Positions 746 to 41,913 of a stretch of DNA of 43,630 nt are shown piece by piece. Under the pieces are notes generated by a model. That model did not search any database. It had not been told where the DNA came from and worked only from the letters and a program-made list of their open reading frames with translations. The DNA comes from a virus. Taxonomy: Duplodnaviria > Caudoviricetes. The position numbers and the translations under genes were made by a program. Positions within the stretch are counted from its first letter, which is position 1, and the number at the start of each line of letters is the position of its first letter. The stretch covers positions 1-43,630 of IMG/VR virus record IMGVR_UViG_3300030061_001151; one strand, 5' to 3'.

Positions 746-3367
746 ATGGCTCAAACAGGTTTAGCCTTTGAAAAAGAAAAAGATTCTTTAACACAACGGA
801 TTTTAGATTTCTTTGAACGTGCTAGGTATGCTTATCTTTCTGCAAGAGAAGACCCTGCTGAATATACATCTGAATGGAAAAAAATCATAAGAATGATGAA
901 AGAAGATTTTGATAACATCAGCAGTTTTGCAACAGAACTTAAAGAATTTATAGATGAAGATGTTTTATTTGATAATGATGTTATAGATGCAACATCTGAT
1001 GAAGCACGTAAATTATTTGAATCTATAAAAGATATGAGATTTAAATCAGATGAAATAACAGACCCGTTTGTTAAACAATTTAATAATAAAGTTATTGAAA
1101 CCTTTATAGAAAAAGAAGAAGTTTTACTTGCATTTTTACATTATGCTATGAGAAGTCATTCAAATGCACTACCGGAAAAATTGTGGGAACAATTTGAAAT
1201 GAAACCTGATTTAGTTACAAGAGGAGTTATGGGTTTAGATTTAAAAGTTCAAGATATTCCTTTGTTTGTGATAGAACATTATGGTCAAGAAAATACTAAC
1301 AATTCTAGAATAAAAGGTAAAGTAAAAGCAGGAATGAAAAAACTAGAAGAAATGTACAAAGAAATATATCCTGAATCTAAGTGGGAAAATTTACAAGAAT
1401 TAAACATTACAAAGGCGGAAAAAAGTGAAGAGGAAAAGGCAGACATTGATTTTTTAATTCCTAACAAACCAATGTACAGAATTTTTGAAATAGATGATAT
1501 GAAAGAACTAAAGGGCTTTAGTGGTGAGTGGGTTGTACAAGAAAAATATGATGGTATGAGAATACAAATTCACAAAACAGATGATATTGTAACTATTTAT
1601 TCTTATAATAAAAAAGATATAACTGATAAATGTCCTCAACAAGTTAAGGAAATGAAAAAGAAAAATTTCGGAGATTGTATTTTAGATGCCGAATTAACTT
1701 TATTTTTAAATGATGAACCATTACATAGAGCAGATACAATTTCACATGTTTTCAAAAAAGAAACAAAAGGTAGATTGGCTGCTCATGTTTTTGACATTAT
1801 GAAACATGAAGGTAAAATGGTTGCTGATGAGCCTTTGCGTGAAAGAATTAATATGTTATTTTATCAATACAGTCAACACTCCACTGAAAATTTAGCATTC
1901 CCTTCTAAAAAAGATACTCGTATAGCAGATTCTCTAAAAGAAATAGAATCCTATGCTAAAGATATTATGATGTTACCTAACTCTGAAGGTGTCGTAATCA
2001 AAGACATTGAATCTACTTATTTAATAGGGAAAAAGAAAAACCCAAAGTGGGTCAAATGGAAAAAATTTATTGATTTAGATGTAATAGTATTAGATGATAA
2101 AAAGACTAAAAGTAATTTACATAGTTATACTATGGGAATTGGGCCTGTAACTGCTGAAGTTGCTAGAAAATACAAAACGGTAGAATTAGAAGATAAAGCA
2201 TATGTGCCTGTAGGTAAAGCACTAAATACAAAACAAAGTGTAAAAATAGGAGATATTATTAGAGTCAAAGTTGATGAAGTAAAGAAAACTAAGGACGGAT
2301 TTAGTCTATATTCTGCTAAAGTAATTGAATTACCGGAAGTAAATGAGTCTGATAATATTATTACATTAGAACAACTTGCAGGTAAAACTAAAAAATCTTT
2401 ATCTGATTTTGTAGAGTTTGTGGCAGGTAGAACATTAGGCGGATTATTTAGAGTAAGTAGCGGACTTTCTGATACAGTAACAAATGGTAAAAAGAAAAAG
2501 AAAAAGGCCGGAATAAAGAAATCATATTATATTACTGATGATATACATGGAACTGCTGAAATTATATTAAAAGAAGATATTGATGGATTCACTATTTATG
2601 GATTTGAAGGTGATTCTCTTATGCAGAAAAATGCACTATACAACATAGATTTATGGAAAGAACAACTTACATCAATTTTGAAAACGAAAAGGTCTGAATT
2701 ACGAGTTGCTATTCGTAATGATATTATAGAGTATGGTGATAGCCCAAAACCTTTTGATAAAATATTAGATTTTGTTGTTAAAAATTATAAAGAACAGTAT
2801 GAAGAATTATTTGATGGTAGAGAAGAAAAATTAATGTCTTGGATGAAAAAACAAGATGATATACGATATATACATCCTAATAAATTTCAAGCAAGAGAAG
2901 ATATTTTAGAAAAAGATATTGATGACTTACAAAAAAAAGTAAAAGAAGCGAGTTTTAAAATATACCAACGTGAAGATGGTAATTTAGATTTTGTTATATT
3001 AATCGAAGATGAGAAATTAGCATGGACTATTGACATAGAAGATGCTGAAGATATATACAATTTGTTTGGTAAGTCAGGTAAGTTTCCTGCTGTAGTAGCA
3101 AAACAAGTTGATGAAGATGATTTATTAGATAGTGGTAAATTAATTTTAGGTGTTCAAAAAGATGGTTATCACGAATACAAATTAGAAGGAGATAAATTTG
3201 ATACAAGAATGCATCTTAGAGTTGTACCATTAAATGAGAAAAATACTTGGATAGCATGGACAGGAAAAAAGCAAGAAATGTTAGACAATAAAGACAATGA
3301 AAATTTATGGGATATAAGAGAAGATAAGTATGCAAAATTACAATTTCCTCCTAAAAGTGGCGACTAA
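746..3367 (+). CDS. lig: ATP-dependent DNA ligase with long N- and C-terminal extensions
   Basis: Motif I QEKYDGMR, III ILDAEL, IIIa HVFDIM, IV EGVVIK and V WVKWK, followed by an OB-fold-like region. GAGGAG SD upstream. Confidence 0.9.
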   Translation: MAQTGLAFEKEKDSLTQRILDFFERARYAYLSAREDPAEYTSEWKKIIRMMKEDFDNISSFATELKEFIDEDVLFDNDVIDATSDEARKLFESIKDMRFKSDEITDPFVKQFNNKVIETFIEKEEVLLAFLHYAMRSHSNALPEKLWEQFEMKPDLVTRGVMGLDLKVQDIPLFVIEHYGQENTNNSRIKGKVKAGMKKLEEMYKEIYPESKWENLQELNITKAEKSEEEKADIDFLIPNKPMYRIFEIDDMKELKGFSGEWVVQEKYDGMRIQIHKTDDIVTIYSYNKKDITDKCPQQVKEMKKKNFGDCILDAELTLFLNDEPLHRADTISHVFKKETKGRLAAHVFDIMKHEGKMVADEPLRERINMLFYQYSQHSTENLAFPSKKDTRIADSLKEIESYAKDIMMLPNSEGVVIKDIESTYLIGKKKNPKWVKWKKFIDLDVIVLDDKKTKSNLHSYTMGIGPVTAEVARKYKTVELEDKAYVPVGKALNTKQSVKIGDIIRVKVDEVKKTKDGFSLYSAKVIELPEVNESDNIITLEQLAGKTKKSLSDFVEFVAGRTLGGLFRVSSGLSDTVTNGKKKKKKAGIKKSYYITDDIHGTAEIILKEDIDGFTIYGFEGDSLMQKNALYNIDLWKEQLTSILKTKRSELRVAIRNDIIEYGDSPKPFDKILDFVVKNYKEQYEELFDGREEKLMSWMKKQDDIRYIHPNKFQAREDILEKDIDDLQKKVKEASFKIYQREDGNLDFVILIEDEKLAWTIDIEDAEDIYNLFGKSGKFPAVVAKQVDEDDLLDSGKLILGVQKDGYHEYKLEGDKFDTRMHLRVVPLNEKNTWIAWTGKKQEMLDNKDNENLWDIREDKYAKLQFPPKSGD

Positions 3368-4609: not shown

Positions 4610-5962
4610 ATGAGTGGATATATAAAAACAATGAAAGATTTAGAAGCGGCATCATACGGTCTAAGAGGCGGTAATGGTAATGCTTTGTTGAAGGCTGCCG
4701 GAGTCGTTGGTGGATTAGGAGGAGTAGGACACGATTTACAACCTGCTTTTAGTGGTGCATCAGGACTAACGGATTTATACAATGTTCTTTACGGACAGAA
4801 AGTATGGTCAATGCTTAACCAAGAGGTTAATGCTTTGTCAATGATTGCTAAGAGGCCATATACCTCAAGTGGTTGGAGAGTTCTAAAGAGCCGACCTCAA
4901 GGTGGTAGTGGTTCTGCTTTCGCACTTGGTAGTGGAGCAGCAGGAAGTGCTGCACCTAAAGCATCAGTAATTGGTGGAGTTGCAGAAAATGCTTCTCTAA
5001 GTAGTATTACTGCATTAGCCCCTGAATACACAAAACTGAATGTAAGCCCTAAAACAATAGCACACAAATTCGAGTTCTCTGAACTTGCAATGGAACTTGC
5101 TGCTATTGATGATGGTGTTGGTGATATACGTGCTATAATCCGTGAGGATATGGGTAAACACCACGCTGAAGTACAGAACAAGATGTTATTAACACCTCTT
5201 GAAGTATATTCAGAAACAGGAACAGGAGATATTGTTAACAACTATACATCTTTGTATAAGGTTGTAGCAAGTGCTGAAGAAATTGGTCAAATGTACACTG
5301 ATGATTTAACTGACTTAGGTGCAGGTGGTACTAATGAAGCCCTTGAAGATACATTAGTAAGAATCTATGGACAAGATAGAGGAGTTACAGTTAGTACTGA
5401 AACTATTACAGTTGTATCTGATTTCTTGGATGCTGAAGTTGACTTCGGTGCAAGTTATGCAGCAGGTTCTACTAGAGTATTAACTTTAACAATACTAAAT
5501 GACATGATTCGTAGAATCCGTCAAAATGGTGGAAACCCTAAAGTTATCTTAACAGGATACGATACTATACAACATATCTCTGACTTGCTACAAAGCCAAG
5601 AGAGATTTATGGATAGGAAAGAAGTAGTTCCTACACATAACGGTGTTCGTGGAGTTAAAGGTGCTGAAGTTGGTTTCAGAGTTGCAACATACTATGATAT
5701 ACCAATTATCCCTTGTAAGGATATGGGTTCAACAACTGCTGCCGGTGTAACAAATGGATTAAGTGATATCTTTGTCTTAGATACAGACCATCTATGGCTA
5801 TCAGTTATGAAGCCTACAGAATACTTCGAGGATGGTATTTCAAATGGAAACCCATTCGGTGTTGGAACTTTAGGAAATCAAGCAATGTACAGAACCATTG
5901 GTGAAGTATGTTGTTCTTTCTTTAAAGGTCAAGGTAAGATAACTAACTTGAAGAGTGCTTGA
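4610..5962 (+). CDS. Major capsid protein (HK97 fold)
   Basis: 450 aa, follows the protease, strong SD (AAGGAGTGA). Capsid-like segments PKTIAHKFEFSE, YYDIPII and C-terminal QGKITNL. Confidence 0.85.
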   Translation: MSGYIKTMKDLEAASYGLRGGNGNALLKAAGVVGGLGGVGHDLQPAFSGASGLTDLYNVLYGQKVWSMLNQEVNALSMIAKRPYTSSGWRVLKSRPQGGSGSAFALGSGAAGSAAPKASVIGGVAENASLSSITALAPEYTKLNVSPKTIAHKFEFSELAMELAAIDDGVGDIRAIIREDMGKHHAEVQNKMLLTPLEVYSETGTGDIVNNYTSLYKVVASAEEIGQMYTDDLTDLGAGGTNEALEDTLVRIYGQDRGVTVSTETITVVSDFLDAEVDFGASYAAGSTRVLTLTILNDMIRRIRQNGGNPKVILTGYDTIQHISDLLQSQERFMDRKEVVPTHNGVRGVKGAEVGFRVATYYDIPIIPCKDMGSTTAAGVTNGLSDIFVLDTDHLWLSVMKPTEYFEDGISNGNPFGVGTLGNQAMYRTIGEVCCSFFKGQGKITNLKSA

Positions 5963-6812: not shown

Positions 6813-7087
6813 GTTCTAGTGGTAGTGGAGTACAGACGGCTGATGCATTGGTTTTCAAAGGTAAGTGTAAACTTATGAGTGTACACGGTTGTAATGCTTC
6901 AGGTTCAGCAGTAACTATTTCTGTTTATGATAGTGATGATGCTTCTGCATCCGGTGATGTAGAAGTCTGTAGAATGGTTTTAGCCTCTAATGGTTCTTTT
7001 GAATACGATATGCATGGTAGATTTTGTGCTAAAGGTCTTTTCGTTGATATAACAGGAACAGGTCATTACTCCCTAGAGTGGAGTTGA
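6809..7087 (+). CDS. Small beta-rich virion-type protein; start uncertain (ATA 6809 or TTG 6848)
   Basis: The frame is open back to 6797. Composition resembles the other small structural proteins. Confidence 0.6.
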   Translation: MGSSGSGVQTADALVFKGKCKLMSVHGCNASGSAVTISVYDSDDASASGDVEVCRMVLASNGSFEYDMHGRFCAKGLFVDITGTGHYSLEWS

Positions 7088-7092
7088 TTATT

Positions 7093-7518
7093 GTGCCAAG
7101 CATAGATAATGATACAAGATTAGTAATGACTATTCTTTTTGTTGGAGCAGTTAGCGGAGTAAATGTTTACTTCTATGCACAATATGGAGTAGGTTTTCCA
7201 TATACTGTTGAAGCACACGCAATTTTATTTGGTATATCTACAATAGGTGGAATCATGATAATGAAAGCAGTATTTGATTTAATTGCTAATGATTATATTG
7301 AAGAGACTTTATTACAAAGACGGATTGATGCTTATTGGAATCGTAGAGCGAGAGAAGAAGAGAACCGTAAAAGAGTTCGAGAATCTTTTAGGAATTTCCA
7401 ACAAACATGGAATAATACAGTTCAATCTCCTACTAATGTTTATGGTGATGGTAATTTACCTACCATAAAAGGAAATACAGAAGGAGTAAGTCCTTCCTTT
7501 TTAACAATAGAACAATGA
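7093..7518 (+). CDS. Membrane protein: two transmembrane helices plus a charged coiled-coil tail
   Basis: Hydrophobic LVMTILFVGAVSGVNVYFYA and AILFGISTIGGIMIMKAVF, then RRAREEENRKRVRE. A GGAGTTGA SD favours GTG 7093 over 7078. Confidence 0.75.
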   Translation: MPSIDNDTRLVMTILFVGAVSGVNVYFYAQYGVGFPYTVEAHAILFGISTIGGIMIMKAVFDLIANDYIEETLLQRRIDAYWNRRAREEENRKRVRESFRNFQQTWNNTVQSPTNVYGDGNLPTIKGNTEGVSPSFLTIEQ

Positions 7519-7531
7519 TTGAGGTGAGATA

Positions 7532-7756
7532 GTGGTTGGAGAAATCCTAATGGGTTTTGATGAAACCGCTATGGCTTACGATTTACAAAGAGCACATTCT
7601 GCTGACATTTGGTTCTTGAGAGCAAGATTTTGGATATGGGGAATTGTGTGTTCAATTGGAAGTTTCTTTCTTGGACAAACATTAGCAATATTTGGTATTA
7701 ATACAATGTCAATATTGTGGAATGGGTTAGTGGACTTTTGGCATCATTTGTGGTGA
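7532..7756 (+). CDS. Small Trp-rich membrane protein
   Basis: 74 aa, GAGGTGA SD, transmembrane segment FWIWGIVCSIGSFFLGQTLAIFGI and amphipathic C-terminus LWNGLVDFWHHLW. Confidence 0.75.
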   Translation: MVGEILMGFDETAMAYDLQRAHSADIWFLRARFWIWGIVCSIGSFFLGQTLAIFGINTMSILWNGLVDFWHHLW

Positions 7757-7760
7757 TAAC

Positions 7761-8432
7761 TTGTCTGTAATGGCAGGGTTTGCTATTTTAATGGTGGAGG
7801 GATTGAATAAAGTATATCAAAGATTACATTCAATACCCTTTGGTGTATATGGTGCGAGCAAAGCAGGGAAAACAACATTACACCACCAATTGAGAACTAG
7901 AGGAGAAGTACCTGATATAATGGAAAGAACTGTAGGTTTAGAAAGAGCCACAAGAAAATATATCAAATTAGATGGTAATGCACACACTGTCAAAACTGCT
8001 GATATTGGTGGACAAACTATTTATTGGACAGAATGGATAAAAGATATGAAAGAGCGTAGAACAAAATATATTATTTTTTTAATTGATGATAGACATATGG
8101 ATAAACACTATGATATTGAACAACAATTGTGTTGGACATTTTTAGTAGATACTATTTGTGCTAGTCATTGGAATGTTAAAAACAAATTAAAAAAGAAAAA
8201 AGACCATGATTATCCTATAGCAGTGGGTGTTTGGGCAAACAAATATGATTTATGGAAAGACAAATATGAACATGAAGGAGAAATAGAAAAGCATCCTATT
8301 TTTGATGCATTTAGAGCAGGAATGCAAAAATTAAATGAAAAGGGAATTCCTTGTTTTAAATACATTGTTAGTGCCAAAACTGACTCAACTATGGTATATA
8401 GAGGAATCTTAACAATGATAAAGGACTACTAG
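7761..8432 (+). CDS. Ras-superfamily small GTPase, Arf/Sar-like
   Basis: All five G motifs in order: G1 GASKAGKTT, G2 RTVG, G3 DIGGQ, G4 WANKYD, G5 VSAK. Hydrophobic/amphipathic N-terminal helix. Confidence 0.9.
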   Translation: MSVMAGFAILMVEGLNKVYQRLHSIPFGVYGASKAGKTTLHHQLRTRGEVPDIMERTVGLERATRKYIKLDGNAHTVKTADIGGQTIYWTEWIKDMKERRTKYIIFLIDDRHMDKHYDIEQQLCWTFLVDTICASHWNVKNKLKKKKDHDYPIAVGVWANKYDLWKDKYEHEGEIEKHPIFDAFRAGMQKLNEKGIPCFKYIVSAKTDSTMVYRGILTMIKDY

Positions 8433-8434
8433 GT

Positions 8435-9121
8435 GTGAAGACCATGACGATGAACTATCAGCCACCTAATTTAATTGGTGCAACTACTACATCTGTAGCG
8501 TCAAATGCCTTCATGGACAGGCATGACCAAGCAAGAGCAGCAGGTACAGTAATGTTGTACGAATTTAAGAATATAAAACCGAAAAAACAATTGAAAGAAA
8601 TAACTAAGATTCTTTTACCTGAGAAAAAATCTTTTCTCAAAATACCCTATAGTTTCAAATATAACATGAAAGATAGATGTGTTGTATGTGGAACACAAAA
8701 AGTTTGGGAATCAAGTGATAATCTTAGACCTCCTTTACCACTACATAAGGTTCGCAAAGGATATCCAATGAGAGGAACATATTGTGAGAAACATGCTCAA
8801 ATACATAGACAATATGAAATGTTAGAACAACAGATATTAGCGGAAGAACATGGATTGTCCTATAGTGCGTATATTCCTAAAATGCCTAATTTGAATCCAC
8901 TATCTAGTGGGCCATTAACAAGTTTAAAACAAGGAGATATACAATCTCTTGCGGGTCTAGGTTGGACAATTAAACCTCCTCAAGCAAAGAGTGAAAGTAG
9001 AGAAGAAGAATTATTTAGACTATTAATAGAAAATGAATCTAATACCAAAAGAGTGAAAGTCTTATTGACCGAAGGCGTTAAGGTTACAAGTGGAAGCGTA
9101 CAGGCGGAGAGTGAGAAGTAA
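8435..9121 (+). CDS. Hypothetical protein with a putative Zn finger (CxxC...CxxH); start may be ATG 8444 or 8450
   Basis: CVVC and YCEKH motifs. Its stop overlaps the next start (TAATG). Confidence 0.7.
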   Translation: MKTMTMNYQPPNLIGATTTSVASNAFMDRHDQARAAGTVMLYEFKNIKPKKQLKEITKILLPEKKSFLKIPYSFKYNMKDRCVVCGTQKVWESSDNLRPPLPLHKVRKGYPMRGTYCEKHAQIHRQYEMLEQQILAEEHGLSYSAYIPKMPNLNPLSSGPLTSLKQGDIQSLAGLGWTIKPPQAKSESREEELFRLLIENESNTKRVKVLLTEGVKVTSGSVQAESEK

Positions 9122-9807
9122 TGGGATTATTCGGAACAAGCAATTCACAATTGGCTACTAGTATATCTAATAGTCAACAAACACAATTTAAAACAATGAA
9201 CAATTTATTAACATTACAAGAGAATCATGTAGAAGATTTTTTTCAATATCATGGTGAGGCTTTTCTCTCTAGTATGGAACAATTAATTGAAGATGTAGTT
9301 GCTAGAGTAGTTGGAGATATGTTATCAAAATTGGAATTTAATACATCAAGTGGTGGTTTTGTTTTAAATACAGATGTTAAAGAACAATTTCAACAAATTA
9401 CTGATGCTAACATAGAATTAGATTTACAGAACTTATTGAATTCAGCAATAAATTCAGAAGTTATTATGCAACGTAGAATGGCTAAAGCACAATACTTGGA
9501 GTCTCAAGGATTCGGTGGACAAGCAGCCGCTACACAACCCCAACTTAGCAATCCGATGGGAATGAACCCACAAAATATACAAGGTAGTAATATGGGAACA
9601 GGAATAAATAATACTATGATGCAGCAACAAATGGCTATGAATAATGGTAGTGGATATCCTGTTCCTCCTGCCGGATACGATAATATGAATAATGCATATT
9701 GGATAGACCCTAATACAGGTCAAATGACATATACACCTCCTGCAAGTGGATTAGGTTTAGGTGCGGCTATAACCAAAGGCGTTGCTTGGGCTAAATGGCT
9801 TGCATAA
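9121..9807 (+). CDS. Hypothetical protein: helical N-terminal half, Q/N/M/G/P low-complexity region, amphipathic C-terminus
   Basis: Begins MGLFG and ends GLGLGAAITKGVAWAKWLA. Translationally coupled to the upstream gene. Confidence 0.75.
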   Translation: MGLFGTSNSQLATSISNSQQTQFKTMNNLLTLQENHVEDFFQYHGEAFLSSMEQLIEDVVARVVGDMLSKLEFNTSSGGFVLNTDVKEQFQQITDANIELDLQNLLNSAINSEVIMQRRMAKAQYLESQGFGGQAAATQPQLSNPMGMNPQNIQGSNMGTGINNTMMQQQMAMNNGSGYPVPPAGYDNMNNAYWIDPNTGQMTYTPPASGLGLGAAITKGVAWAKWLA

Positions 9808-9820
9808 GGTGGTTTGATGT

Positions 9821-11824
9821 ATGGGCGAAATGACAATACCTGCTGACATAGTTCCTAATACAGAACAAGACGTTGTATTAGATACTAAAGAACTAAGTCA
9901 GAATTTTGATGCATTGAGTTCTCAAGATAATAAGAACCCTATTCCATTAAGTATGTTAGCATATATCTTTTCTAGAGTTATGCGTTCTAGTGAAAGAAGT
10001 GATAAAATGAAAGAAGTAAAAACACAGTTAATAAGTCTGTTACAAAAAGATGATGCTGATTTTGAAATGTTGCGAAGAAGAGAAGAGGGATTAATTGACA
10101 AAATTACTGAAGCAGAAATAGATAGACATTTTAGACATTATTTAGATAAAATAGAAGAAACAGATATATTGAACTTGATAACTGCATTAAAAGAAAATGA
10201 CTATATAGATAAAATTAGTTTTGACCTCTTAGATGATGATAAATTAAAAAATTTTAAATTATCACAATTGGATAATCAATCTGCAATAAATAGATTAATG
10301 AGTGTAGTTGAAAGAGGAGAAGATGTATCATCTGAAGATGAACCTGAAGATGAACCTGAAGATGAGGATGATGATTTTGAAAGAAGTGGAAAATTAATGA
10401 GTGCTATTGATAGTTCTAAACCTATACTGTATCCTATGATTACACAGTACATAAAAGAGAAAGGAGAAGGATTTGAAATAGATACTAAAGAATATATGAA
10501 CGAAGTCTTTGAAAAAGAAGGATTTGGTTCTATTGATAGTGAAGATTTTCCTTTTAAAACAGGTTTGCTTGGAGGTAAATTTAAGCAACAAAAAGGTGAA
10601 GAACAGGGTGAAGAAAAAGGAATTCCATTATTACATTTGAAGTTAGTTGGCAAAAAAGGTGTAGGGAGATATGAAAAAGGTGAAGATAAATTTCTTCTTG
10701 AAACCTTTGAAGGTAGTAAAAAATTTGACACATTGGAAGATGCATATGATGGTATAGAAGATTTTATGAAAAAAACACTAAGCAGCAAAAATTTTCTTGA
10801 TAAGATAATACTTAAACAAGACAAACATCCCTTGAAGAATATTCTTTTAAAATATTTAACCGCAGAAAGAAGAGAATTAAGATTAGGTAACATAAGTGTA
10901 GATATAGAAACAGATTTTGTGAAAGAAAAAGAAAAATGGGTAGCAAGTATGGAAAAGAAATTTAATTTAGCGGGAGGTATAGATGTTAAATTAACTCGTA
11001 AAGATAGAACAATAGCAAAAAATATATTTCAAATTATGTCAAAGTTTGAGAACTTCGATGGTGAATTATTACAGTCTTTAGTAGATAATGAAGTACAGGG
11101 TCAAAAAGATGCAAATGACATTATTTTAGACTATTATGGTGTATCTGAAGCAAAGGATGCTGCTGAAGACACACAAAATGAAATAGAAGATAATAACAAT
11201 AACTGGTCTGAAATTGAAACTCCATATAAATTATTAAAAGAAAACGATGAAGTGCCTGTTAATTTGATGGATATTTTAGATGAATATAAGGCATTACAAA
11301 CTAAAAATGAATTTGATTTTGAAAATGTTATGCTTTATGTAAAAGATTTTGCCAGTGGAGGAAAGGGAAAGGCGGGATATGTACAAGGAGCAAGTAGAAT
11401 ACCAATAATTACTGCTGATGTAACATTTAATATGTCTACGCTTCTTGATACTAGACCTAAAAATTATCAAATGTTTATTCGCAAACCTAGAGCCGCACGT
11501 AATGTTAGTAGAGGTAAAAAACAAAGAGAAGGTAGATTTAAGGAATTAAGACAAAAAGAGGAACGATTCAAGAATCCTAAACTACGAGCAAAGTATTTAG
11601 GTCCATTTAATCTTAGTGATGAAAAAATTGATGCTTACTTTGAAGGTCGCTATGAACCACTATCAGATGAAGAAAGAGAAGAATTTGAAAATCTTACTGA
11701 AGAGTTAAAGAGGGAAGAAGAAAAAGAAACAGAACAACCATTTGATATAGTTAAAATTCAGAAAGATTTTTTAAATGTTAAAAGAGCCTATAACAGTCTT
11801 AAGGCAATAGTAGGAGGTAATTAA
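9821..11824 (+). CDS. Large acidic, charged hypothetical protein
   Basis: 667-aa ORF with no recognisable motif. Contains a short EDEP tandem repeat near 10334-10363. Confidence 0.75.
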   Translation: MGEMTIPADIVPNTEQDVVLDTKELSQNFDALSSQDNKNPIPLSMLAYIFSRVMRSSERSDKMKEVKTQLISLLQKDDADFEMLRRREEGLIDKITEAEIDRHFRHYLDKIEETDILNLITALKENDYIDKISFDLLDDDKLKNFKLSQLDNQSAINRLMSVVERGEDVSSEDEPEDEPEDEDDDFERSGKLMSAIDSSKPILYPMITQYIKEKGEGFEIDTKEYMNEVFEKEGFGSIDSEDFPFKTGLLGGKFKQQKGEEQGEEKGIPLLHLKLVGKKGVGRYEKGEDKFLLETFEGSKKFDTLEDAYDGIEDFMKKTLSSKNFLDKIILKQDKHPLKNILLKYLTAERRELRLGNISVDIETDFVKEKEKWVASMEKKFNLAGGIDVKLTRKDRTIAKNIFQIMSKFENFDGELLQSLVDNEVQGQKDANDIILDYYGVSEAKDAAEDTQNEIEDNNNNWSEIETPYKLLKENDEVPVNLMDILDEYKALQTKNEFDFENVMLYVKDFASGGKGKAGYVQGASRIPIITADVTFNMSTLLDTRPKNYQMFIRKPRAARNVSRGKKQREGRFKELRQKEERFKNPKLRAKYLGPFNLSDEKIDAYFEGRYEPLSDEEREEFENLTEELKREEEKETEQPFDIVKIQKDFLNVKRAYNSLKAIVGGN

Positions 11825-11825
11825 A

Positions 11826-12926
11826 ATGGGCAAAGTTTCATCCCCTAGTGATTTTACAAATATAAATGTGGATTATTCAGCAGGTAATGGACATTATACT
11901 ACTCATACAGATATTTCTAATTTATTACAAATAAGTTCGTTTAGTGCAAATACAACTCCTAATCTTTCTGAAATAGGTAAACTAATAAAAAGAGCAGAAG
12001 AAAAAATTGATGATTCTATTAAAACATCATACAGACCTATTATTTACAAAGACGAATTCCATTCATTTGATAATCTAAGACAACGTGCATATCCTATTAG
12101 ACCATACAAAGACTATGTAGGATTTATTCAGTTAAGTTATCCTAAAGTACAAAAGTTGGTTAGATTAGAAGTATATCAAGGCGATGTATGGAAAGATTTG
12201 GCTTCTGCTACTGCAACATTAACAGTTCCTAATTCTGCAACTACAAATGATTGGACAATAACATTAACTGTAGGTAATCCTACTACCTATACTTTTGAAA
12301 TTAAAAACTTAGCAAATAACAGTGTTAGACATTTTTATGATAATTTTGGCCCTAAGACTACGGCAAGTCAAATAGTTGATGCTATTAATGAAGTGTACCC
12401 TATGAAAACTGCTAAGTTTACAGGAGAAACTGCACCTAAATCTATTACTGCAAATGGTTCTACTACTGTACATGTTTCTGATTTCTTTTATGCTACTTTA
12501 GATAGTGAAGATAAAACAACCATAGTAATTAGTTCATTATTAGATGGAGAAGATGGAACATTTTGTACATTATCTTCTACATATGGTTCAGTATCTTCCT
12601 TTGATGATAATCAAACTTCAGGAAGAGATGATGATTATTGGACTATAAATGATGAAGGAAAAATTTTCTTTAGACAACAATACCCATATAATCAACACCA
12701 TTCAATTAGAGTTACCTATGTTGCAGGTGAAGGTAGAGTACCTGCTCCTATACATGAGGCAGCCACAAAACTTGTAGCGGCTGAAATAATTAGACATGAT
12801 GATAATTCAATATTAATTGCTGAAACAGGTTCTAATATTGATTTGAAAGCCAAACATGATATATTATTGGAAGAAGCAAATGCAATCTTAAATGGGAAGA
12901 AAAACCTTGTTCATTTTATATCGTGA
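11826..12926 (+). CDS. Head-tail adaptor (neck) protein
   Basis: N-terminal YTT..DI..LL and C-terminal IRVTYVAG..RVPAPIHEAATKLVA, as in gp6/gp15-like adaptors. Position between head and tail genes. Confidence 0.7.
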   Translation: MGKVSSPSDFTNINVDYSAGNGHYTTHTDISNLLQISSFSANTTPNLSEIGKLIKRAEEKIDDSIKTSYRPIIYKDEFHSFDNLRQRAYPIRPYKDYVGFIQLSYPKVQKLVRLEVYQGDVWKDLASATATLTVPNSATTNDWTITLTVGNPTTYTFEIKNLANNSVRHFYDNFGPKTTASQIVDAINEVYPMKTAKFTGETAPKSITANGSTTVHVSDFFYATLDSEDKTTIVISSLLDGEDGTFCTLSSTYGSVSSFDDNQTSGRDDDYWTINDEGKIFFRQQYPYNQHHSIRVTYVAGEGRVPAPIHEAATKLVAAEIIRHDDNSILIAETGSNIDLKAKHDILLEEANAILNGKKNLVHFIS

Positions 12927-19021: not shown

Positions 19022-22000
19022 ATGGCAGGTAAAATCACATATCCAGTTAACGCAGGAATATTAGATTCTGCGGTAGTCAGTGATTATGATGATAGACTTA
19101 CTGAGTTTAATAATAATAGAGCCTTTAGTAATGTATCTGTTAATCCTGTATTAAAAACAGTAGATATCAATGAGGAAAATTCTGCTTCTGCTGCCGCCTT
19201 TGTTAATTCTGCTATCTTTACAGAAATAAGAAAGAGTTCTCATACAGGAAGTATTTCTAATGATGCAGTTTCTAGAATAGGTAATAGAATACTACCTGTT
19301 GATAGTAGTCCTAGTAGTAGTGACTTAGCAGTATATGCTACTAATAAAGAAGAGACTCATGGATTTAAAGTTAAATTGTATGATAGTTCTATTAGTTCAT
19401 CTACAACAAATAGACAATTTAAATTTTCTACAACTGATTATCCTAGTTCTGATTTTGTTGGAATAGATATAGATAATTATGATTACTTTATTTTAATTAA
19501 TCCTGATATTGTAAGTGTAGGAACAGATAGTGTTAGACCGCACTTTGCAAAGATTACAGGTATTGTAGGTTTTGATGTATTTGGAGATGGATTAGAGTTT
19601 AGCCCTAGTTATCCTACAGGTGTTCCTAATGATGCTAAAGTTGAGATATTCAAAGGGCCAGCAAAAACAGATACAGATGTTGTAGCAGTAAGTTATGGAT
19701 TAAGAGGTGATGCTAATGCTAGTACACCTAAATATGATGTATTCAATATAGCAAGTAGACCTACTTTCTATTTTTACAATGATAGATTAGATGAAGATGA
19801 CCAATTAGATTATACAACAAAATATACTGTAACTGTATTACGTTGGTGGAATTATGGAACAACTATTACAGGAACGACAGTGTATGCTCATTCTCAATTT
19901 GACGAAGGTTTAGAAAATCAATCACAAAAATCTATGATAGTTTCCTCTAGTGATTATGATAAATTAACAGAAGGTATGTCTTTATTCGATACTAATGGAG
20001 TTTATTTAGGTAACATAGAAGGTTTGTTTATTAGTGACCCAACGGGTTCTGCTACCTATCGTTTGTATTTGGATTATGCTAGAGTTGCTATATCTGCTGC
20101 TTCTAATGTTACATTAAAAATAGGTAAAACAATTCAAAATATTGTATTTAGAACAGAGTCTAAGTTTGGAGATACTATTCAGAATATAGGTAAACATAGG
20201 TTAGATGCAGTGCTTGTAGATGCAAATAGAGATTTAGATGATGCAGGTAAACAATATAATTTTGCAGTGGAAGATACAGGTGTTTTAGTAAATGGTGCGT
20301 TAAATGCAGATGCAGGAGTAAATATTACTGTAGATACTGTAGATGCAACTACTAAATTTGCAATAGGTGATACAGTATATGATGATGCTGATGCAGTTGT
20401 AGGAGTTATTAGTGCTATTACTTCTACACAAATAACATTACTAGCAAACAATGTAGTGGCATTAGCAAACAATGAAAATCTCAAAAGACATGTTCCTGAT
20501 TTTAATCCTATTAGATGGCATAAAGCATTTCCTAGAATGCATAGACAGGCTGCTAATCTTCTAGTTGTAAGTAGTGCCGTAGATGGTGGAATGACAGGTG
20601 CAAGTAAATATTTAACATTTGAAAAATCTGAATTAAAAAATGATAAGATACCATTAGTACAGGGTTCTAATTTAAACAATCCTAAGAATAAGATGACAAA
20701 GATAGCACAAGTAACTTATTTAGATAATAGCGGTATTGGACATAAGAAAATCAAAGAAGATGAAATACTCAAAATGCGTAAGACTACTTTTATTGATAAC
20801 TTGGAGTTCAAACCAATACAAGGAAGAACTACTATAGTTAGCAACGTATTTAGAATAATGGATTTAGATAGTAATTATGATTTGAAAAGTATTCTCGCAG
20901 CAAATTCTATTGTTAAGATTAAAGGATATTATTACGTTGTTGATGCTGTCGCTACGAAAGTCAGAGACTCAGCAGGAGATTATCAACAATTTACTATAAA
21001 GGCTAAAAGAGAAGAAACCGCTAATACATGGACAGTTAGTTCTACACCTGAAGCAGCAGCAGGTAATAATCACCCAATTTTAGTTGCAGGGTATACACAT
21101 GTTCTAAATGTAAAATTTGAGGCTGATACAGAATATGACATTAATCAAACTAGATTAACACTGAATGGTAGAACTATAGATAAAGAAGATGCTAAATTAT
21201 ATAATGCAAGATGTACATTTAAAACATTCAATGCTCATGAAAACAAAATTGATTATATCGACAAGGTGCATAAAGTAATAAAGTTACAAAATGAAGATAC
21301 TAAGTTTTACCAAAGTACAGGTAGAAGATTAAATTATTATAATGGAGGATATGCCATACATGAAGAAGTATTTAGTGGTGTAATAGAAGATATACAAACT
21401 ATGACTGAGAATGGTGTAAATGCTATTACAGTTACAGGTAGAGATGATGTATCTAAGTTCTTATCTAAAACGATTAACAGAAATTTAGTTTCTAGTGATG
21501 ACTTAGTAATGAGTACTATGTCACCTTATACAGGAACAGTTGAGGCGTTTAAGAACGGAAGCGGTACAAGTCTAACTGGTAATAGTAGTAATATGTTGGT
21601 AGGTAAAGTTGTAAAATTAAATGCTACAGGTGGAGTTGTTAATAAATATGAAATTATAGTAAATCAAGCCGGAGAACTATTAGGAGAAGTTGTTAGTATT
21701 GATGGAACAGATATTACTTTGGCTCATACTATTTGTGAAACACCCACTACATCAACTACTGCAATAAAACATTATGACCCCTTTGTAGATAATACTCGTT
21801 TAATATCATTCAAATCATTACAGTCTAATTCTGCTCATACTGATACAATTAATGATTTTGCCTCTTTTAGTGAGAAAGGATTAATATTCGATAAGGCAAT
21901 TAAATTAGATGGGAGAGTTCCTAGTCACACTATTGTGGATGTACAAGGTTCTTCTAATACAGGAGACAACTTCGATGACAAGACATTAGGCTATGATGTT

Positions 22001-25000
22001 AGTTCGATAAGAAGTGCTTCAACTAATGATGCTGCTCATGCCTTTTTTATTGGAAACGAAGATGGTATAGTTAATGAAATAACAAACTATAATTCTTTAA
22101 ATTCAGAATCTTTTGCCGTAGTGGAAGTAGATGAAAAGAGTGAATCTGAAACAGTAATATCTATTGCTCCTAAAATGCCTATTGTATTAGGAAGAATAGA
22201 TACAAATACATCTGACACTAGAGGTAATACTCATATCTATATGGTAAATAATAATATTAATACGGGAGGATATATACATCGCTTACCTGATACCTTTGAC
22301 GGAATATATCATCCAAAAGAAACAATTAGATATTGGGATTTACAGACTTTTGAAGCAGGTACTTTAACAAGGACATCTGATACCATTTATAGTGAAGGAA
22401 TCAAACCACAAAAAATACAAGGTTATGCAGTAGGATATGGTACAACAGTTACAGGTACGGTTACTGACCCTGCTATAACAGCAGATAACAAACCTATACT
22501 CGGTAGTAATACTATTAAGAATTATACACAAAGAACAGCCTTCTATGGAAATCATGACCTAATAGAATCATATCAATATAACCAGTCACATGGTAGTAGT
22601 GGTAATACAGTAAAAGAGTATGATATTATGTATGATGTGTTTGAACAAATAGACCCTAGAACTATTCCATATGAACTAATGGCCGTAGGTGATATATACC
22701 CATTGTCTAAATTAAGATGGAATAATTTAGGGTTTCACACACTTAGTTATGACCAATTTGCTATTTTATTAGAATCTACTCCATCTGTTACAAGTTCAAC
22801 AAATCATCAATTATATGATGGTACAACTAAACAAACTGTAAAAACAGAAAATATGTTTGAAACAGGACAAATACAAAGTGCAACACAGACTACAAATCAA
22901 CTTAGAAGATGGGGTGTTATTAAATTAGTAGAAGCAACTTTTGATTGGCACTTTAATCCTATAGATTTTGAGTCTTTGAAACCCTCTGAACAAATACCAA
23001 CAATTCCTTATTTTGATTATGTAATGTTTGATACTCCAACCGCAGATACAGGTACAATACAAATAGGGGAAAACGGTGAAATTGATAGTGAATCTTTGAC
23101 TGAAAGTGAAGGGGATGTGTTTTATGATGAACAGGTTATAGGGGCTTATCCATCTACAGGAGACAATGTGGCTAGTGGATATGCCGTTGTTTCTAACGCT
23201 AGTGGAATAGTCGTTCCTACTGAATCAAATGGATTAATTGTAAAGCATGATGGTAGTGTGTTTAGACCTAATGCTGCATTTGATGATGATGGGTTTACAA
23301 CTCTATATGGAAATACATCGGGTAAAGATATGTTACGATTTGATGGTAATTCTGCGGTAGAAGGAGTAGAAAGATTCAGAATACATAGAACAATTGATTA
23401 TATGATTGATAATTTAGATACTACTACTGATGCTAATTTTTTGACAGACCGAAGAGATGCATTAAAAAATATAAGATGGACAGATGTTTTCTTTACTAGA
23501 AGAGGTAGTAAAGCAAATGCTAATTTTAAATTTGGTAGATTATCTGATGGTGGTGATGAATATGAAGCACCAAATGTTATATTACCAATAATTGCAGAAG
23601 AGAAAGTAAACACTGGAAATAATGAAGACCGAATATTTAGTCCATTTATTCATGGAACTAATTGGGGTTCAGGAACAAGACATTTCCTTCATATGTCAAG
23701 AGTAATTGCAGCATTAGTTGAAAGGTACAAAAGTAGTAATACATATTTTAGTATATTAGATAAGTATGGTATGGGGTTAACTGATACTAATTCTGCTACC
23801 TTTGCTCATCCATATCAAAATTGTATTGGTGTATTCAAGGATATTAGACAGGCTGAGTCTGATAGTACAGTGCGACTAGATACATTATCTATTTCTTCTG
23901 CTCCGCTAGACTTAGATACTGATTCTAATTATGCGGATTATATAGATGGGGTAGGTAATACATTAGACCAACATACACGTACTTCTTTTATACAATCTTA
24001 TCCCAGTAGTACAACCCTTTCTATGATTGGCACAAGAACTGATGGAGATTTTCTTGGAGACAAGAAGGCTATTGCCAGTGGACTTAATGCAACTCATGCA
24101 GCATGTAATTCAGGAGATGGAATTGTTTGTTCTGCTCAAATGTTAGTTAAACCTGTTTTTAATTTAACACATGGTAGTGGTGGGGTTACTGTATCTAATG
24201 CTCAACTAACCTTTGTACTGAATGCAGATACAGGACATGCTTGGTTAAGTTTTATGCCTAACTTAACAGGTTATTATATTGTATCTGAGTCTCTTACTGA
24301 TGTTTCATTATCTGCTAGTGCAGTAGCAGGAAGTCTAAGAAAAGACCCTGATAGTGCTTATCCTGCTGACATTCACAAAATAATAAGCCACACTGTTTCT
24401 ACACTACCTACTACATCCAATATTGAAACTCATACTATTACGGTAGATGCTAATTTAACAATAGACAGCAATAATAAAAAATATAGATTAATGAGAATTT
24501 CAGAAACCACCTTTGATGGTCACGAAGATAAAATAGAGTTCAATGTAATGAAGCCACAAGAAGTAGCATTTAATTGGAAAAGAGGAGGACAAGATGATGA
24601 TAATCTACAATACCAAGAATCTGTATATGAAATGCATTTACTGTTAGACATAGACAATGCCTCAACATTTATTGAAAGAAGAACTAATACTGCTATAGAT
24701 GACCATTTTACTGATGGTGAAACGATAGAAACATATATCACTGATGGAAATAATTCACAAAGAAAAACATTAACAATCGCTACTACTAGAAAGAAAGGTA
24801 GTTCTGATTCTAAAACAACCGCAGGATTAGTAATGTCATTTAGTGGTTCTCTTACAGGTAATGGTGTTGTATCTTTTGGAGAGATATTTGATGTAAAACT
24901 AGGACAAAGACCCAAAATAAAAAATATAAAACATTGTCATATAGGTAGTTCGTATAGGATTGGAAGTAATGTAGAAAAAGAAGTAGAAAATATTGTGAAA

Positions 25001-26101
25001 GATGCAGGATTAATATATGATAATTCTAAGAGTTTTTCAGAATTTACAGGGAATGTTGTTAACAGTGTAAATAGTTTAACTATTACATGTCTTGAAACTG
25101 TTACAAATATAACTGCCGGAGATATATTATATTCAAAGGATGGACATTTAATAGGTAAGGTAGCCTCTACGAGTGGTGCTACTGTTGTTATTGACACACA
25201 GTTATATTATACACCAACACAATATGATGAATTAATTAGAATAAATAAAAGAACATTTATTTCATCTTTAAACTTAGAAGATATAGATGTATTTACTGCT
25301 CTTAATACATTGGTAAACAAGAAAGGACTAGATTATACATTAAAAGATAAGAAAATTATAACAAGAAATCTAGATGATATTAGTAGTTTAAGAAAGTATT
25401 CAGTTGGGTATCTAGAGGCTAATAGATTAATTAGTGTAGAAAGTAATACTTCTCTGTTTGATAAAGCAAACAAGGTTATAGTTGTTGGTGATAAAATAAG
25501 AACAGAAATAACTAGCCCTGTAAAAGGAACTGATAAGGTAATTAGAATAGTAGATTCTTCTATTAAAGATATAACTGAAGCAAATCAAATTGCACAAGAA
25601 ACATTGAATGTACATAATGGTGAAAGTAGAAAGATTACTTTAACATTAGATAAAAAAGGATTAGAGTTATTAGAAGCAGGTGATATACTAACTTTGAATT
25701 TCCCACAACATAATATTCCTAAAGCAGATTATCAAGTGTTTGAAATTGAAAATGTATTAGCAGGTGTAATGAAAATAACAGTTGGAACGTTTGATAAAAC
25801 AATTGCAGAAAGACTTAGTGAGATATCATTAGAACAAAAGAAATCAAATATCAGTTTAATGAAAAAAGATGCACTAATTGTTAGTGCAGGTTTAGCATTA
25901 TTTGATTCTATTAATATCAATTTCATTGACGTAAGTTATGAAATTACTAGTACAGTTGTAGAAAATCCAAACTTAGGATTTGATGATGTAGTTGGGTTTA
26001 CTGAGACCGTAAACTTTGATACACAGACTACCCTCAAGTCGAGTTATGATGATGGTGTGATTGAGAGAGCAGAAAAATATACGGACATGATGGAGGATTA
26101 A
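19022..26101 (+). CDS. Very large tail tip/baseplate hub protein
   Basis: 2359 aa. Tal-like segments (VFSGVIEDI..ITVTGRD; NKVIVVGD; LLEAGDILTL) separated by large beta-rich insertions. Confidence 0.7.
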   Translation: MAGKITYPVNAGILDSAVVSDYDDRLTEFNNNRAFSNVSVNPVLKTVDINEENSASAAAFVNSAIFTEIRKSSHTGSISNDAVSRIGNRILPVDSSPSSSDLAVYATNKEETHGFKVKLYDSSISSSTTNRQFKFSTTDYPSSDFVGIDIDNYDYFILINPDIVSVGTDSVRPHFAKITGIVGFDVFGDGLEFSPSYPTGVPNDAKVEIFKGPAKTDTDVVAVSYGLRGDANASTPKYDVFNIASRPTFYFYNDRLDEDDQLDYTTKYTVTVLRWWNYGTTITGTTVYAHSQFDEGLENQSQKSMIVSSSDYDKLTEGMSLFDTNGVYLGNIEGLFISDPTGSATYRLYLDYARVAISAASNVTLKIGKTIQNIVFRTESKFGDTIQNIGKHRLDAVLVDANRDLDDAGKQYNFAVEDTGVLVNGALNADAGVNITVDTVDATTKFAIGDTVYDDADAVVGVISAITSTQITLLANNVVALANNENLKRHVPDFNPIRWHKAFPRMHRQAANLLVVSSAVDGGMTGASKYLTFEKSELKNDKIPLVQGSNLNNPKNKMTKIAQVTYLDNSGIGHKKIKEDEILKMRKTTFIDNLEFKPIQGRTTIVSNVFRIMDLDSNYDLKSILAANSIVKIKGYYYVVDAVATKVRDSAGDYQQFTIKAKREETANTWTVSSTPEAAAGNNHPILVAGYTHVLNVKFEADTEYDINQTRLTLNGRTIDKEDAKLYNARCTFKTFNAHENKIDYIDKVHKVIKLQNEDTKFYQSTGRRLNYYNGGYAIHEEVFSGVIEDIQTMTENGVNAITVTGRDDVSKFLSKTINRNLVSSDDLVMSTMSPYTGTVEAFKNGSGTSLTGNSSNMLVGKVVKLNATGGVVNKYEIIVNQAGELLGEVVSIDGTDITLAHTICETPTTSTTAIKHYDPFVDNTRLISFKSLQSNSAHTDTINDFASFSEKGLIFDKAIKLDGRVPSHTIVDVQGSSNTGDNFDDKTLGYDVSSIRSASTNDAAHAFFIGNEDGIVNEITNYNSLNSESFAVVEVDEKSESETVISIAPKMPIVLGRIDTNTSDTRGNTHIYMVNNNINTGGYIHRLPDTFDGIYHPKETIRYWDLQTFEAGTLTRTSDTIYSEGIKPQKIQGYAVGYGTTVTGTVTDPAITADNKPILGSNTIKNYTQRTAFYGNHDLIESYQYNQSHGSSGNTVKEYDIMYDVFEQIDPRTIPYELMAVGDIYPLSKLRWNNLGFHTLSYDQFAILLESTPSVTSSTNHQLYDGTTKQTVKTENMFETGQIQSATQTTNQLRRWGVIKLVEATFDWHFNPIDFESLKPSEQIPTIPYFDYVMFDTPTADTGTIQIGENGEIDSESLTESEGDVFYDEQVIGAYPSTGDNVASGYAVVSNASGIVVPTESNGLIVKHDGSVFRPNAAFDDDGFTTLYGNTSGKDMLRFDGNSAVEGVERFRIHRTIDYMIDNLDTTTDANFLTDRRDALKNIRWTDVFFTRRGSKANANFKFGRLSDGGDEYEAPNVILPIIAEEKVNTGNNEDRIFSPFIHGTNWGSGTRHFLHMSRVIAALVERYKSSNTYFSILDKYGMGLTDTNSATFAHPYQNCIGVFKDIRQAESDSTVRLDTLSISSAPLDLDTDSNYADYIDGVGNTLDQHTRTSFIQSYPSSTTLSMIGTRTDGDFLGDKKAIASGLNATHAACNSGDGIVCSAQMLVKPVFNLTHGSGGVTVSNAQLTFVLNADTGHAWLSFMPNLTGYYIVSESLTDVSLSASAVAGSLRKDPDSAYPADIHKIISHTVSTLPTTSNIETHTITVDANLTIDSNNKKYRLMRISETTFDGHEDKIEFNVMKPQEVAFNWKRGGQDDDNLQYQESVYEMHLLLDIDNASTFIERRTNTAIDDHFTDGETIETYITDGNNSQRKTLTIATTRKKGSSDSKTTAGLVMSFSGSLTGNGVVSFGEIFDVKLGQRPKIKNIKHCHIGSSYRIGSNVEKEVENIVKDAGLIYDNSKSFSEFTGNVVNSVNSLTITCLETVTNITAGDILYSKDGHLIGKVASTSGATVVIDTQLYYTPTQYDELIRINKRTFISSLNLEDIDVFTALNTLVNKKGLDYTLKDKKIITRNLDDISSLRKYSVGYLEANRLISVESNTSLFDKANKVIVVGDKIRTEITSPVKGTDKVIRIVDSSIKDITEANQIAQETLNVHNGESRKITLTLDKKGLELLEAGDILTLNFPQHNIPKADYQVFEIENVLAGVMKITVGTFDKTIAERLSEISLEQKKSNISLMKKDALIVSAGLALFDSININFIDVSYEITSTVVENPNLGFDDVVGFTETVNFDTQTTLKSSYDDGVIERAEKYTDMMED

Positions 26102-41032: not shown

Positions 41033-41913
41033 AACCAACTCTCCGTATTAGCCGCATCGCATATTCCAAAAAAACTACAAGAAGCACAAGTTCTTGCAAA
41101 ATATTTAGTGGGGAATACTCCGTGTTCATATGCGTATATCAATTCTGCGATTCCTTTCTTTACTGATGTAACACTACTAGGTTTCATCTTTTCCATATGT
41201 AAATAATTAGATGCAGGGTAATACCATCCCCAATGAGTAATTGGTATATTTCTGTCTAAGTTTGCACTTTCTAATAATTCATCAGAGGCGTTCTCGAATA
41301 GTAATTTGTAAAAGGCCATTTCCTTTCTCATCATTGTTGTTTTGTAATCTTTCCAAAGACCTGTTTTTAATTCCATAGGGATATATGAACCGTCTTCATA
41401 AAACATACGGTCAATAATACCTTGAAGATGTACAGTGTAATCTCTTTTCAGTGTATACTTTGGGTTATCGTATTGACCTACAGTAATCTTAGCATCTAGT
41501 AATACTTCATTAACAACAGGAATAAAATCATCTAACGTATTTTGTTCTTTGGCTTCTATAAATCTATTAGCCTCAAAGATAGCCATAGTTTCATACATCT
41601 CCGTATAGTCATCTATAGGGTGTAGGCTAAGACAATAATTAATTAATTCTGAATGTGACATATCTTCTGCTTTAGCAATGTCAAAATCATCAAAGAATGC
41701 TTCTCTAGCATTGTGAATAATAGTACCCTTATACATTGCTTCAGTTGTATCTTGAGGTAATCTTTCGATATATGAAAATTGATATTTTTTAGGACACCAT
41801 TGGAAAGAACCAAATGATGATTTAGTTATTTTTAATATTGGTAAATCTTCATCACCATATGTATCTGCTACCCATTGATATGTATATTCATTTGTATTAC
41901 TACTTCTTGTCAT
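41029..41913 (-). CDS. Cas4-like PD-(D/E)xK nuclease with an Fe-S cluster motif
   Basis: WCPKKY, GTIIH, GIIDR, ELKTG and CASCSFFGIC. Start placed at ATG 41913 (TAATG overlap with the PolB fragment, GAGGAG SD). Confidence 0.85.
   Translation of the reverse strand: MTRSSNTNEYTYQWVADTYGDEDLPILKITKSSFGSFQWCPKKYQFSYIERLPQDTTEAMYKGTIIHNAREAFFDDFDIAKAEDMSHSELINYCLSLHPIDDYTEMYETMAIFEANRFIEAKEQNTLDDFIPVVNEVLLDAKITVGQYDNPKYTLKRDYTVHLQGIIDRMFYEDGSYIPMELKTGLWKDYKTTMMRKEMAFYKLLFENASDELLESANLDRNIPITHWGWYYPASNYLHMEKMKPSSVTSVKKGIAELIYAYEHGVFPTKYFARTCASCSFFGICDAANTESWL

Follow-up and report, generated by a model that had tools for sequence, protein, structure and literature searches.

Introduction

Among the described systems closest to the locus studied here, the Asgard ArfR proteins (GerdArfR1, 8OUN/8OUM; HodArfR1, 8OUK) combine an N-terminal helix lacking Gly2 with a DxGG motif, a switch II Trp and, in some members, SAK at G5, as given in the accessible portions of bioRxiv 10.1101/2024.02.28.582541 and PMC11914678; the latter also names Leu-Asp at G1 positions 2-3 as an Arf feature. 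In the euryarchaeal ArvA/ArvB/ArvC system, as presented in the available part of PMC10927574, vesicle formation is driven by a small GTPase whose N-terminal helix is amphipathic and whose operon also encodes a zinc-ribbon protein, and deletion of ArvA in Haloferax alters vesicle output and cell shape. Group 1 MglA proteins carry a conserved Arg beside the G2 Thr, which is the site of the intrinsic arginine finger of MglA (PMC4316618, available text). Small GTPases are also found on mobile elements and viruses, as in the Arf GTPases of an MGE-like region of Atabeyarchaeia (PMC11529989, available text) and the Arf and Rab proteins of giant viruses; these cluster with host-type Arf or Rab, whereas the tailed-virus clade described in this study is deep and conserved and has its own cassette.

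The gene under study was introduced in a preliminary description, made from the sequence, as a complete eukaryote-like GTPase of the Arf/Sar type in an archaeal tailed virus, whose origin would bear on the evolution of Arf-family proteins. The present analysis finds a conserved five-gene cassette around this gene, left out of that description, to be a stronger result than the Arf-like GTPase itself.

The virus and its relatives

The window, namely the whole stretch of 43,630 nucleotides analysed here (IMG/VR record IMGVR_UViG_3300030061_001151), is a 43.6-kb linear virus record with an estimated completeness of 47%, and it encodes a prohead protease, a capsid protein, a tail tube protein, PolB and an exonuclease. 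The best annotated relatives of the major capsid protein (4610-5962, plus strand) are those of the haloviruses HCTV-1 and HVTV-1, at 23-25% identity, and an ATP-dependent DNA ligase gene (746-3367, plus strand) lies within the structural module, an arrangement that PMC5434244 describes in magrovirus groups A and B. Because the capsid protein is halovirus-like and the ligase is inside the structural module, the window is called magrovirus-like here, and the full magrovirus set of these two features together with PolB and an exonuclease is present. This gene set agrees with the archaeal tailed virus of the preliminary description, whereas the host, Marine Group II (Poseidoniales), is one that we infer; the same host was inferred for magroviruses in PMC5434244, which reports that they rank third in abundance among marine virus groups.

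Relatives of the GTPase were confirmed at 546 (clade 1), 145 (clade 2) and 4 (clade 3) IMG/VR loci, near-duplicates included, the second clade lying at about 30% identity. Of 80 loci fetched by means of the capsid gene, 54 have at least 2.6 kb of sequence on its downstream side, and all 54 carry the GTPase gene there. A profile search of 1.84 billion representatives returned 88 matches, consisting of the viral clades followed by uncharacterised G-domain proteins at 17-28% identity, and in the ESM Atlas bacterial clusters make up most of the nearest non-viral ones (0.93-0.95), with an Asgard cluster (0.92) ranking behind them. By these searches and the careful tree described below, the nearest relatives outside the magroviruses are uncharacterised prokaryote-type G-domain proteins and not ArfR. 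Among INPHARED phages, tblastn gave no match to the window GTPase or to P0213, and no relative was seen in cultured haloviruses; the P0129 query found no IMG/VR locus, and the P0207 query found only itself.

Scanned with clade-1 patterns, GTDB yielded two loci from a single MAG labelled as bacterial; these loci are read as viral contigs because both are flanked by ligase, protease and capsid genes. Three contigs of this MAG (G001), namely L081, L082 and L447, carry the viral GTPase family, and the two that were checked are likely binned viral contigs. Across 401 genomes of the same phylum, a broad profile found no close relative beyond G001, and the remaining matches were weak (E 1e-8 to 1e-6) and came from longer ORFs. 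As separate observations, giant-virus records in IMG/VR (L195-L247) contain many intact Arf-like GTPases, most of them with Gly2, and a 2.2-kb metagenome contig (L278/L279) carries two Asgard-type ArfR genes, C-terminally extended and pointing away from each other.

In the open literature, with subscription papers and bioRxiv supplements outside the search, we found no published description of a magrovirus GTPase cassette. The string 'GTP' is absent from the main text of PMC10160649, PMC11706807 and PMC5434244, and 'GTPase' is absent from the supplements of the same papers, which for PMC11706807 means a part of the supplement, with the annotation tables perhaps outside it.

The GTPase gene

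The GTPase gene (7761-8432, plus strand) encodes 223 aa from a TTG start, with Met4 at 7770 as an alternative start; at the codon matching this TTG, related loci have ATG in 66, TTG in 13 and GTG in 3 of 82 cases. All motifs quoted in the preliminary description are present on the plus strand: the G1/P-loop GASKAGKT (residues 31-38, 7851-7874), the G2 Thr with its adjoining Arg (Arg56-Thr57, 7926-7931) as part of RTVG (56-59), G3 DIGGQ (residues 81-85, 8001-8015), YWTEW (88-92), IIFLID, G4 NKYD (8238-8249, with ANKYD at residues 159-163) and G5 SAK (residues 204-206, 8370-8378). The small-GTPase motif set, consisting of G1 GxxxxGK[ST], the G2 Thr, G3 DxxG, G4 NKxD and an SA-type G5, is thus complete in the window protein. 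Among the best 120 of 370 homologues, G31, G36, K37, T57, D81 and A205 are each conserved in 119, and G83, G84, W89, W92, N160, K161, D163 and S204 in all 120, which bears out the earlier reading of an intact G1-G5 set.

Other details quoted as Arf-like belong to the window protein more than to its family. Asp81 is invariant and DxGG near-invariant in the deep alignment, and DxGG is present in 120/120 of the best homologues, but the catalytic Gln read at the end of DxGGQ is not a family feature, since residue 85 is Glu in 82 and Gln in 38 of those 120 (best of 370) and Glu, Asp or His in many relatives; in the deep-family alignment (n=30), this position holds Q in 13, E in 13, H in 3 and A in 1. 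TVG in switch I and SAK at G5 likewise occur in the window protein but in only 10/30 and 11/30 deep-family sequences, respectively, and are confined to part of the family.

Arg directly precedes the G2 Thr in 120/120 of the best homologues and in 29/30 deep-family sequences. This is the place of the intrinsic finger in group 1 MglA, and Arg56 is a candidate built-in arginine finger, which would explain why Glu or His is tolerated at G3. The viral protein differs from MglA in its DxGG rather than TVPGQ at G3 and in its N-terminal helix, its neighbours have no roadblock (MglB-like) Pfam match, and MglA is absent from the trees described below.

The dN/dS of the GTPase against seven close loci, not all of them independent, was 0.024-0.095, and its mean identity to the window over loci L009-L080 was 77%, versus 69% for the major capsid protein. 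Three JGI homologues carry the automatic annotation 'GTPase SAR1 family protein', and the 7998 candidates that were scored included no longer, fused form, a weak piece of evidence. Judged from its sequence, the reading frame at 7761-8432 encodes a real and probably active GTPase of the Ras-superfamily fold.

An AlphaFold2 model built from 57 sequences (mean pLDDT 72.9, with switch-I residues 42-53 below 50) places the G domain after a helix at residues 2-22. The N-terminal helix (residues 2-23, 7764-7829, plus strand), a predicted membrane anchor, agrees with the hydrophobic helix of the preliminary description, but it has two parts: residues 1-12 are hydrophobic and non-amphipathic (H 1.04, moment 0.24 vs 0.20 for shuffled sequences), whereas residues 12-23 are amphipathic (moment 0.59 vs 0.29). 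Residues 4-21 (H 0.56, moment 0.37, charge +1) fall within the ranges used in the accessible text of PMC11914678, and the family mean helix H of 0.67 exceeds its range. As had been stated, the myristoylation site Gly2 is missing, being found in 0/121 sequences. A basic insertion (residues 134-151, 8160-8213, plus strand), whose net charge ranges from +2 to +10 in 30 members of the family, may provide a second membrane contact. Taken from the model, the N-terminus is likely to be membrane-binding.

The five-gene cassette

The GTPase gene is the third of five plus-strand genes separated by intergenic gaps of 0-13 bases. The first (7078-7518, probably starting at GTG 7093, in line with the starts of its homologues) encodes two predicted TM segments and a charged C-terminal part, and the second (7532-7756) encodes a 74-aa protein with one predicted TM segment and a C-terminal amphipathic helix. 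The fourth gene (8435-9121) encodes a Cys/His protein in which C82 and C117 are invariant and H120 is near-invariant, and the fifth (9121-9807) a protein whose N-terminal core is conserved and whose tail is rich in Gln, Asn, Met and Gly.

In loci with enough flank, and with one minus-strand locus left out, the four partners were found beside the GTPase in 108/108, 109/109, 98/98 and 93/93 cases in clade 1, in 75/75, 79/79, 81/81 and 70/80 cases in clade 2, and in 4/4 cases each in clade 3. Homology across clades was seen with clade-1 profiles for the Cys/His gene (74 matches at E<0.01) and the Gln-rich gene (10 matches). The membrane genes of clades 2-3 were chosen by position and hydrophobicity; the clade-1 profiles reached best E values of 0.36 and 0.013 against these clades, with the syntenic ORFs ranked top among 4404, and the cross-clade correspondence of the two membrane genes is positional only.

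The tblastn search of 84 clade 2-3 loci gave no match to any window gene except the GTPase, and seven such loci read gene by gene had different neighbours, for example a chaperonin. The cassette therefore behaves as a unit, since clade 2-3 loci share the GTPase block within other surrounding genes. In clade 1, it lies between the capsid/head genes and the head-tail genes, in the late structural region, and in the window a head-tail adaptor-like gene (11826-12926, plus strand) follows downstream.

For the partners, no convincing family or fold match was obtained with Pfam, PHROG, NCBIfam, Foldseek or VIA; no cassette gene has a PHROG family, and NCBIfam gave only small_GTP, below its cut-off. 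The model of the Cys/His protein had a best Foldseek E of 3.0 and a best VIA Z of 4.4, values that do not show a new fold, and the predicted complex of this protein with the GTPase, GTP and Mg scored 0.31 against a mark of 0.32, which weighs neither for nor against such a complex. A sigma-70 promoter scan found fewer sites than in shuffles, with a consensus ill-suited to an archaeal virus. An ArfGAP-like identity of the Cys/His protein, considered from its Cys pattern, was unsupported.

Three further features of these loci were recorded. In clade-2 cassettes (L110:7735-7992, L115:9214-9456, L150), the Gln-rich gene is immediately followed by a sixth small gene with 1-2 predicted TM segments, which is absent in the window. 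Clade-3 cassettes adjoin a chaperonin gene (L190:4250-5782, and upstream of the cassette in L193). In the window, the cassette is followed at 9821-11824 by an acidic 667-aa ORF, highly variable in length and sequence and detected in 25/54 loci.

Proposed function of the cassette

The reading that we favour, with slightly more doubt than belief, is that an intact, conserved GTPase of its own viral clade is a likely membrane-bound switch of the five-gene module, most likely timing or driving the exit of progeny. Exit is favoured because of the late position of the cassette in the window, its movement as one block and its membrane anatomy, and because the egress of tailed archaeal viruses is unexplained and a euryarchaeal GTPase operon drives vesiculation, as the available texts of PMC10791045 and PMC10927574 respectively state. 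In the accessible part of PMC10791045, a 2024 review, the egress players of tailed archaeal viruses are called 'still completely uncharacterized'.

According to this proposal, the cassette would be co-expressed with the late genes, as its gene order and short gaps suggest, and the GTPase is predicted to be kept on the host cytoplasmic membrane by both parts of its N-terminal helix (hydrophobic residues 1-12, amphipathic residues 12-23) together with the basic insertion. The GTP-bound form may then bring the Gln-rich protein together with the products of the two membrane genes in an assembly that deforms or breaches the membrane. Hydrolysis would be carried out with the GTPase's own Arg56 and not with a fixed G3 Gln, by analogy to MglA, and the Cys/His protein is a candidate regulator of the GTPase, by analogy to ArvC.

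The ArvABC operon resembles the viral cassette in its euryarchaeal setting, in a GTPase with an amphipathic N-helix and in a zinc-type operon partner, as far as the accessible text of PMC10927574 describes it. The viral cassette differs in having two membrane genes and a Gln-rich gene, and ArvA is likened to the viral GTPase by description, not by sequence. No Pfam match to ArvB (DUF2073) or ArvC (DUF2072) was found at E 0.01 in the Cys/His and Gln-rich genes, where remote homology is possible.

Several points speak against exit. The place of the cassette between head and head-tail genes in the window fits a role in the virion equally well, the nearest named Atlas clusters of the Gln-rich protein are, weakly (0.83-0.84), ejection proteins, and the cultured haloviruses, which lyse their hosts, have no relative of the GTPase by tblastn. 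To our knowledge, holins and the known lysis systems need no GTPase.

In an unlikely alternative, the cassette would serve entry: the Gln-rich protein and its partners would be packaged inside the virion and pass through the host membrane at infection, with the GTPase gating their loading or release. The clade-1 location between capsid and head-tail adaptor genes suits such a role, and Gly/Gln-rich low-complexity tails are common in ejection proteins. The nearest Pfam-named Atlas clusters of the Gln-rich protein are P22 gp7 (0.84, 13% of members) and T7 gp14 (0.83, 16%), although scores below 0.9 are leads only, shuffled proteins reaching 0.8 in a third of cases. The cassette has other neighbours in clades 2-3, however, and integral membrane proteins would be unusual cargo for a lipid-free tailed capsid.

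The membrane anatomy and conservation that speak for exit would serve equally for a remodelling of the host without lysis, through a block of division or superinfection, a diversion of vesicles, or the membrane anchoring of replication or assembly. The changed vesicle output and cell shape of Haloferax lacking ArvA (PMC10927574, in the part available) are consistent with this, as is the chaperonin gene that adjoins the clade-3 copies, which the available text of PMC5434244 places in the replicative cluster. We consider it improbable, given the clade-1 cassette within the late structural region and neighbours that have no ArvB or ArvC Pfam domain.

Returning to exit, a more far-reaching version of this reading, which we regard as doubtful, would make the cassette the means by which the most abundant tailed archaeal viruses of the ocean leave their hosts. 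It would be a GTP-switched lysis system in which a membrane-anchored viral GTPase with its own arginine finger, from a separate deep Arf-like lineage, times and carries out the breach of the host membrane. If true, this machinery would be unlike holins, pyramids or ESCRT budding. The exit of tailed viruses from archaeal cells that have no murein wall is an open question, as the accessible text of PMC10791045 presents it, and the cassette offers five small genes whose expression and assay do not require culture of the host.

Relationship to the Arf family

Whether the GTPase is a true Arf protein is a question separate from the function of the cassette. It is quite unlikely, in our estimate, that it is a true ArfR/Arf member derived from an Asgard or early eukaryotic lineage and using the Arf interswitch toggle, although both structure and profile comparisons show why this was proposed. 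The predicted model matches solved structures of the small-GTPase fold with best Z values of 14.9-15.0 (rmsd 2.7-2.8 A over 158-159 residues), led in VIA by Arl1 (15.0), Arf1 (14.9), Arf6 (14.9) and SR-beta (14.7), followed by Asgard Rag (14.5), ArfR (14.0), G-alpha (13.8), Sar1 (13.7) and Rab5 (13.2). The eukaryotic Arf, Arl, Sar1 and SR-beta proteins are therefore the top fold matches (Z 13.7-15.0), but Asgard Rag is tied within 1 Z, and the viral protein has neither the myristoylation Gly nor a conserved catalytic Gln; Foldseek alone favours G-alpha and Rab.

With a virus-only profile, the best GTPase in the PDB was the Asgard GerdArfR1 8OUN (E 2e-5), followed by Arl8 (5e-4), Rab33 (0.013) and SR-beta (0.02), and Arf-family chains make up nearly all of the best 60 matches of a broader profile. 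RecA rows in the virus-only search were summed P-loop repeats and not relatives. Pfam Arf does match the window protein, but marginally (23.7 bits against a cut-off of 22.3, residues 29-123 only), and among 57 members it matches fewer (22) than MMR_HSR1 (52), SRPRB (39), Roc (31) or Ras (23).

In the Arf signature, the G3 Asp is followed by Arg at +8 and Trp at +11. The Arf-like Trp reported after switch II stands, being at +11 in 18/18 viral sequences together with the conserved DxGG, but position +8 holds Arg in 1/30 and Trp in 26/30; counts of this pattern in the references are circular, as these were fetched with it. SAK, also quoted as Arf-like, is the commonest G5 in both the Rab (13/20) and the Asgard-type ArfR (7/18) references and is not Arf-specific.

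The remaining details set the viral protein apart. Leu-Asp at G1 is present in 0/18 viral sequences versus 19/19 Arf and 16/18 ArfR references, the family having AT (67/120) or AS (51/120) at these positions among the best 120 of 370 homologues. The interswitch, from the G2 Thr to the G3 Asp, is 24 in clade 1 and 32-38 in the other clades, compared with 19 in 36/37 Arf/ArfR references and a Rab mode of 23. The residue before the G2 Thr is Pro in 19/19 Arf and 16/18 ArfR references, whereas it is Arg in the viral family, and the G3-to-G4 distance of 76-84 exceeds that of ArfR (57-69) by about 20 residues. In addition to these differences and the variable G3 residue, the viral GTPase has about 20% identity to Asgard ArfR, and its mean identity is equal to Arf (21%), ArfR (20%) and Rup1 (20%).

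The reference sequences of the two trees, collected by motif, comprised giant-virus Rabs, Rup1-like proteins of bacteria, two Era-like outgroups, Arf-like genes on contigs of giant viruses and metagenomes, and Asgard-type ArfR from metagenomes, the last labelled by likeness to the 8OUN alignment and not by taxonomy; MglA, Rag, ArfL, ArvA, Sar1, SR-beta and G-alpha lie outside both. In the quick tree (105 rows, 167 columns), the viral and uncharacterised proteins form one group (SH-aLRT 98) outside ArfR+Arf (96), as its sister (SH-aLRT 82). The careful tree (57 of the 105 rows, 159 columns), from which the Rup1-labelled row L448 (in fact Rho-like), some sequences of each reference group and 11 'unk' rows that were long or unstable had been dropped, supports the viral cassette clade at 100/94 and puts the group outside Arf+ArfR+Rab+Rup1 together (89/88), next to the outgroup, a position that is probably long-branch pull. 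The clade was thus distinct in both trees and nested within ArfR/Arf in neither, with the sister relation of the quick tree lost in the careful one.

AU tests gave p 0.154 for the Arf side, 0.204 for the sister of Arf and 0.144 for the Rab side, rejecting none of the three. As far as these alignments go, the viral GTPase is a distinct, long-branched lineage forming its own clade, with the three placements equally retained. Membership in the Arf family, as claimed in the preliminary description, is not supported, even though the fold and profile searches tend towards Arf/Arl/ArfR, and the Arf label denotes resemblance, not membership. Since the placement is open among the three positions, nothing follows yet for Arf evolution, and the present data are uninformative on the origin of Arf proteins, contrary to what had been suggested. 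The cassette GTPase stands for a deep lineage of helix-bearing small GTPases in prokaryote viruses, which ought to be sampled in further trees of the Ras superfamily.

Minor alternative and observations

In a very improbable reading, the GTPase would time or chaperone the morphogenesis of head or neck, and its N-terminal helix would bind a partner protein and not lipid. Its fixed place downstream of the capsid gene in clade 1 and its conservation above that of the capsid protein are set against a linkage to two hydrophobic genes that persists when the block moves and a helix whose hydrophobic pattern is preserved while its sequence varies.

Other features of the window were noted in passing. 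The tail region contains a giant ORF of 2359 aa (19022-26101) with no Pfam or PHROG match, and another of 2955 aa (26465-35332) with weak structural and tail-fibre matches. On the minus strand, a 114-aa ORF (43172-43516) near the PolB gene of this tailed dsDNA virus has a rolling-circle Rep domain (Pfam Viral_Rep, E 4e-17). The PolB ORF itself (41913-42815, minus strand) comprises the C-terminal 300 aa only and is possibly the split PolB of group B magroviruses mentioned in the available text of PMC5434244.
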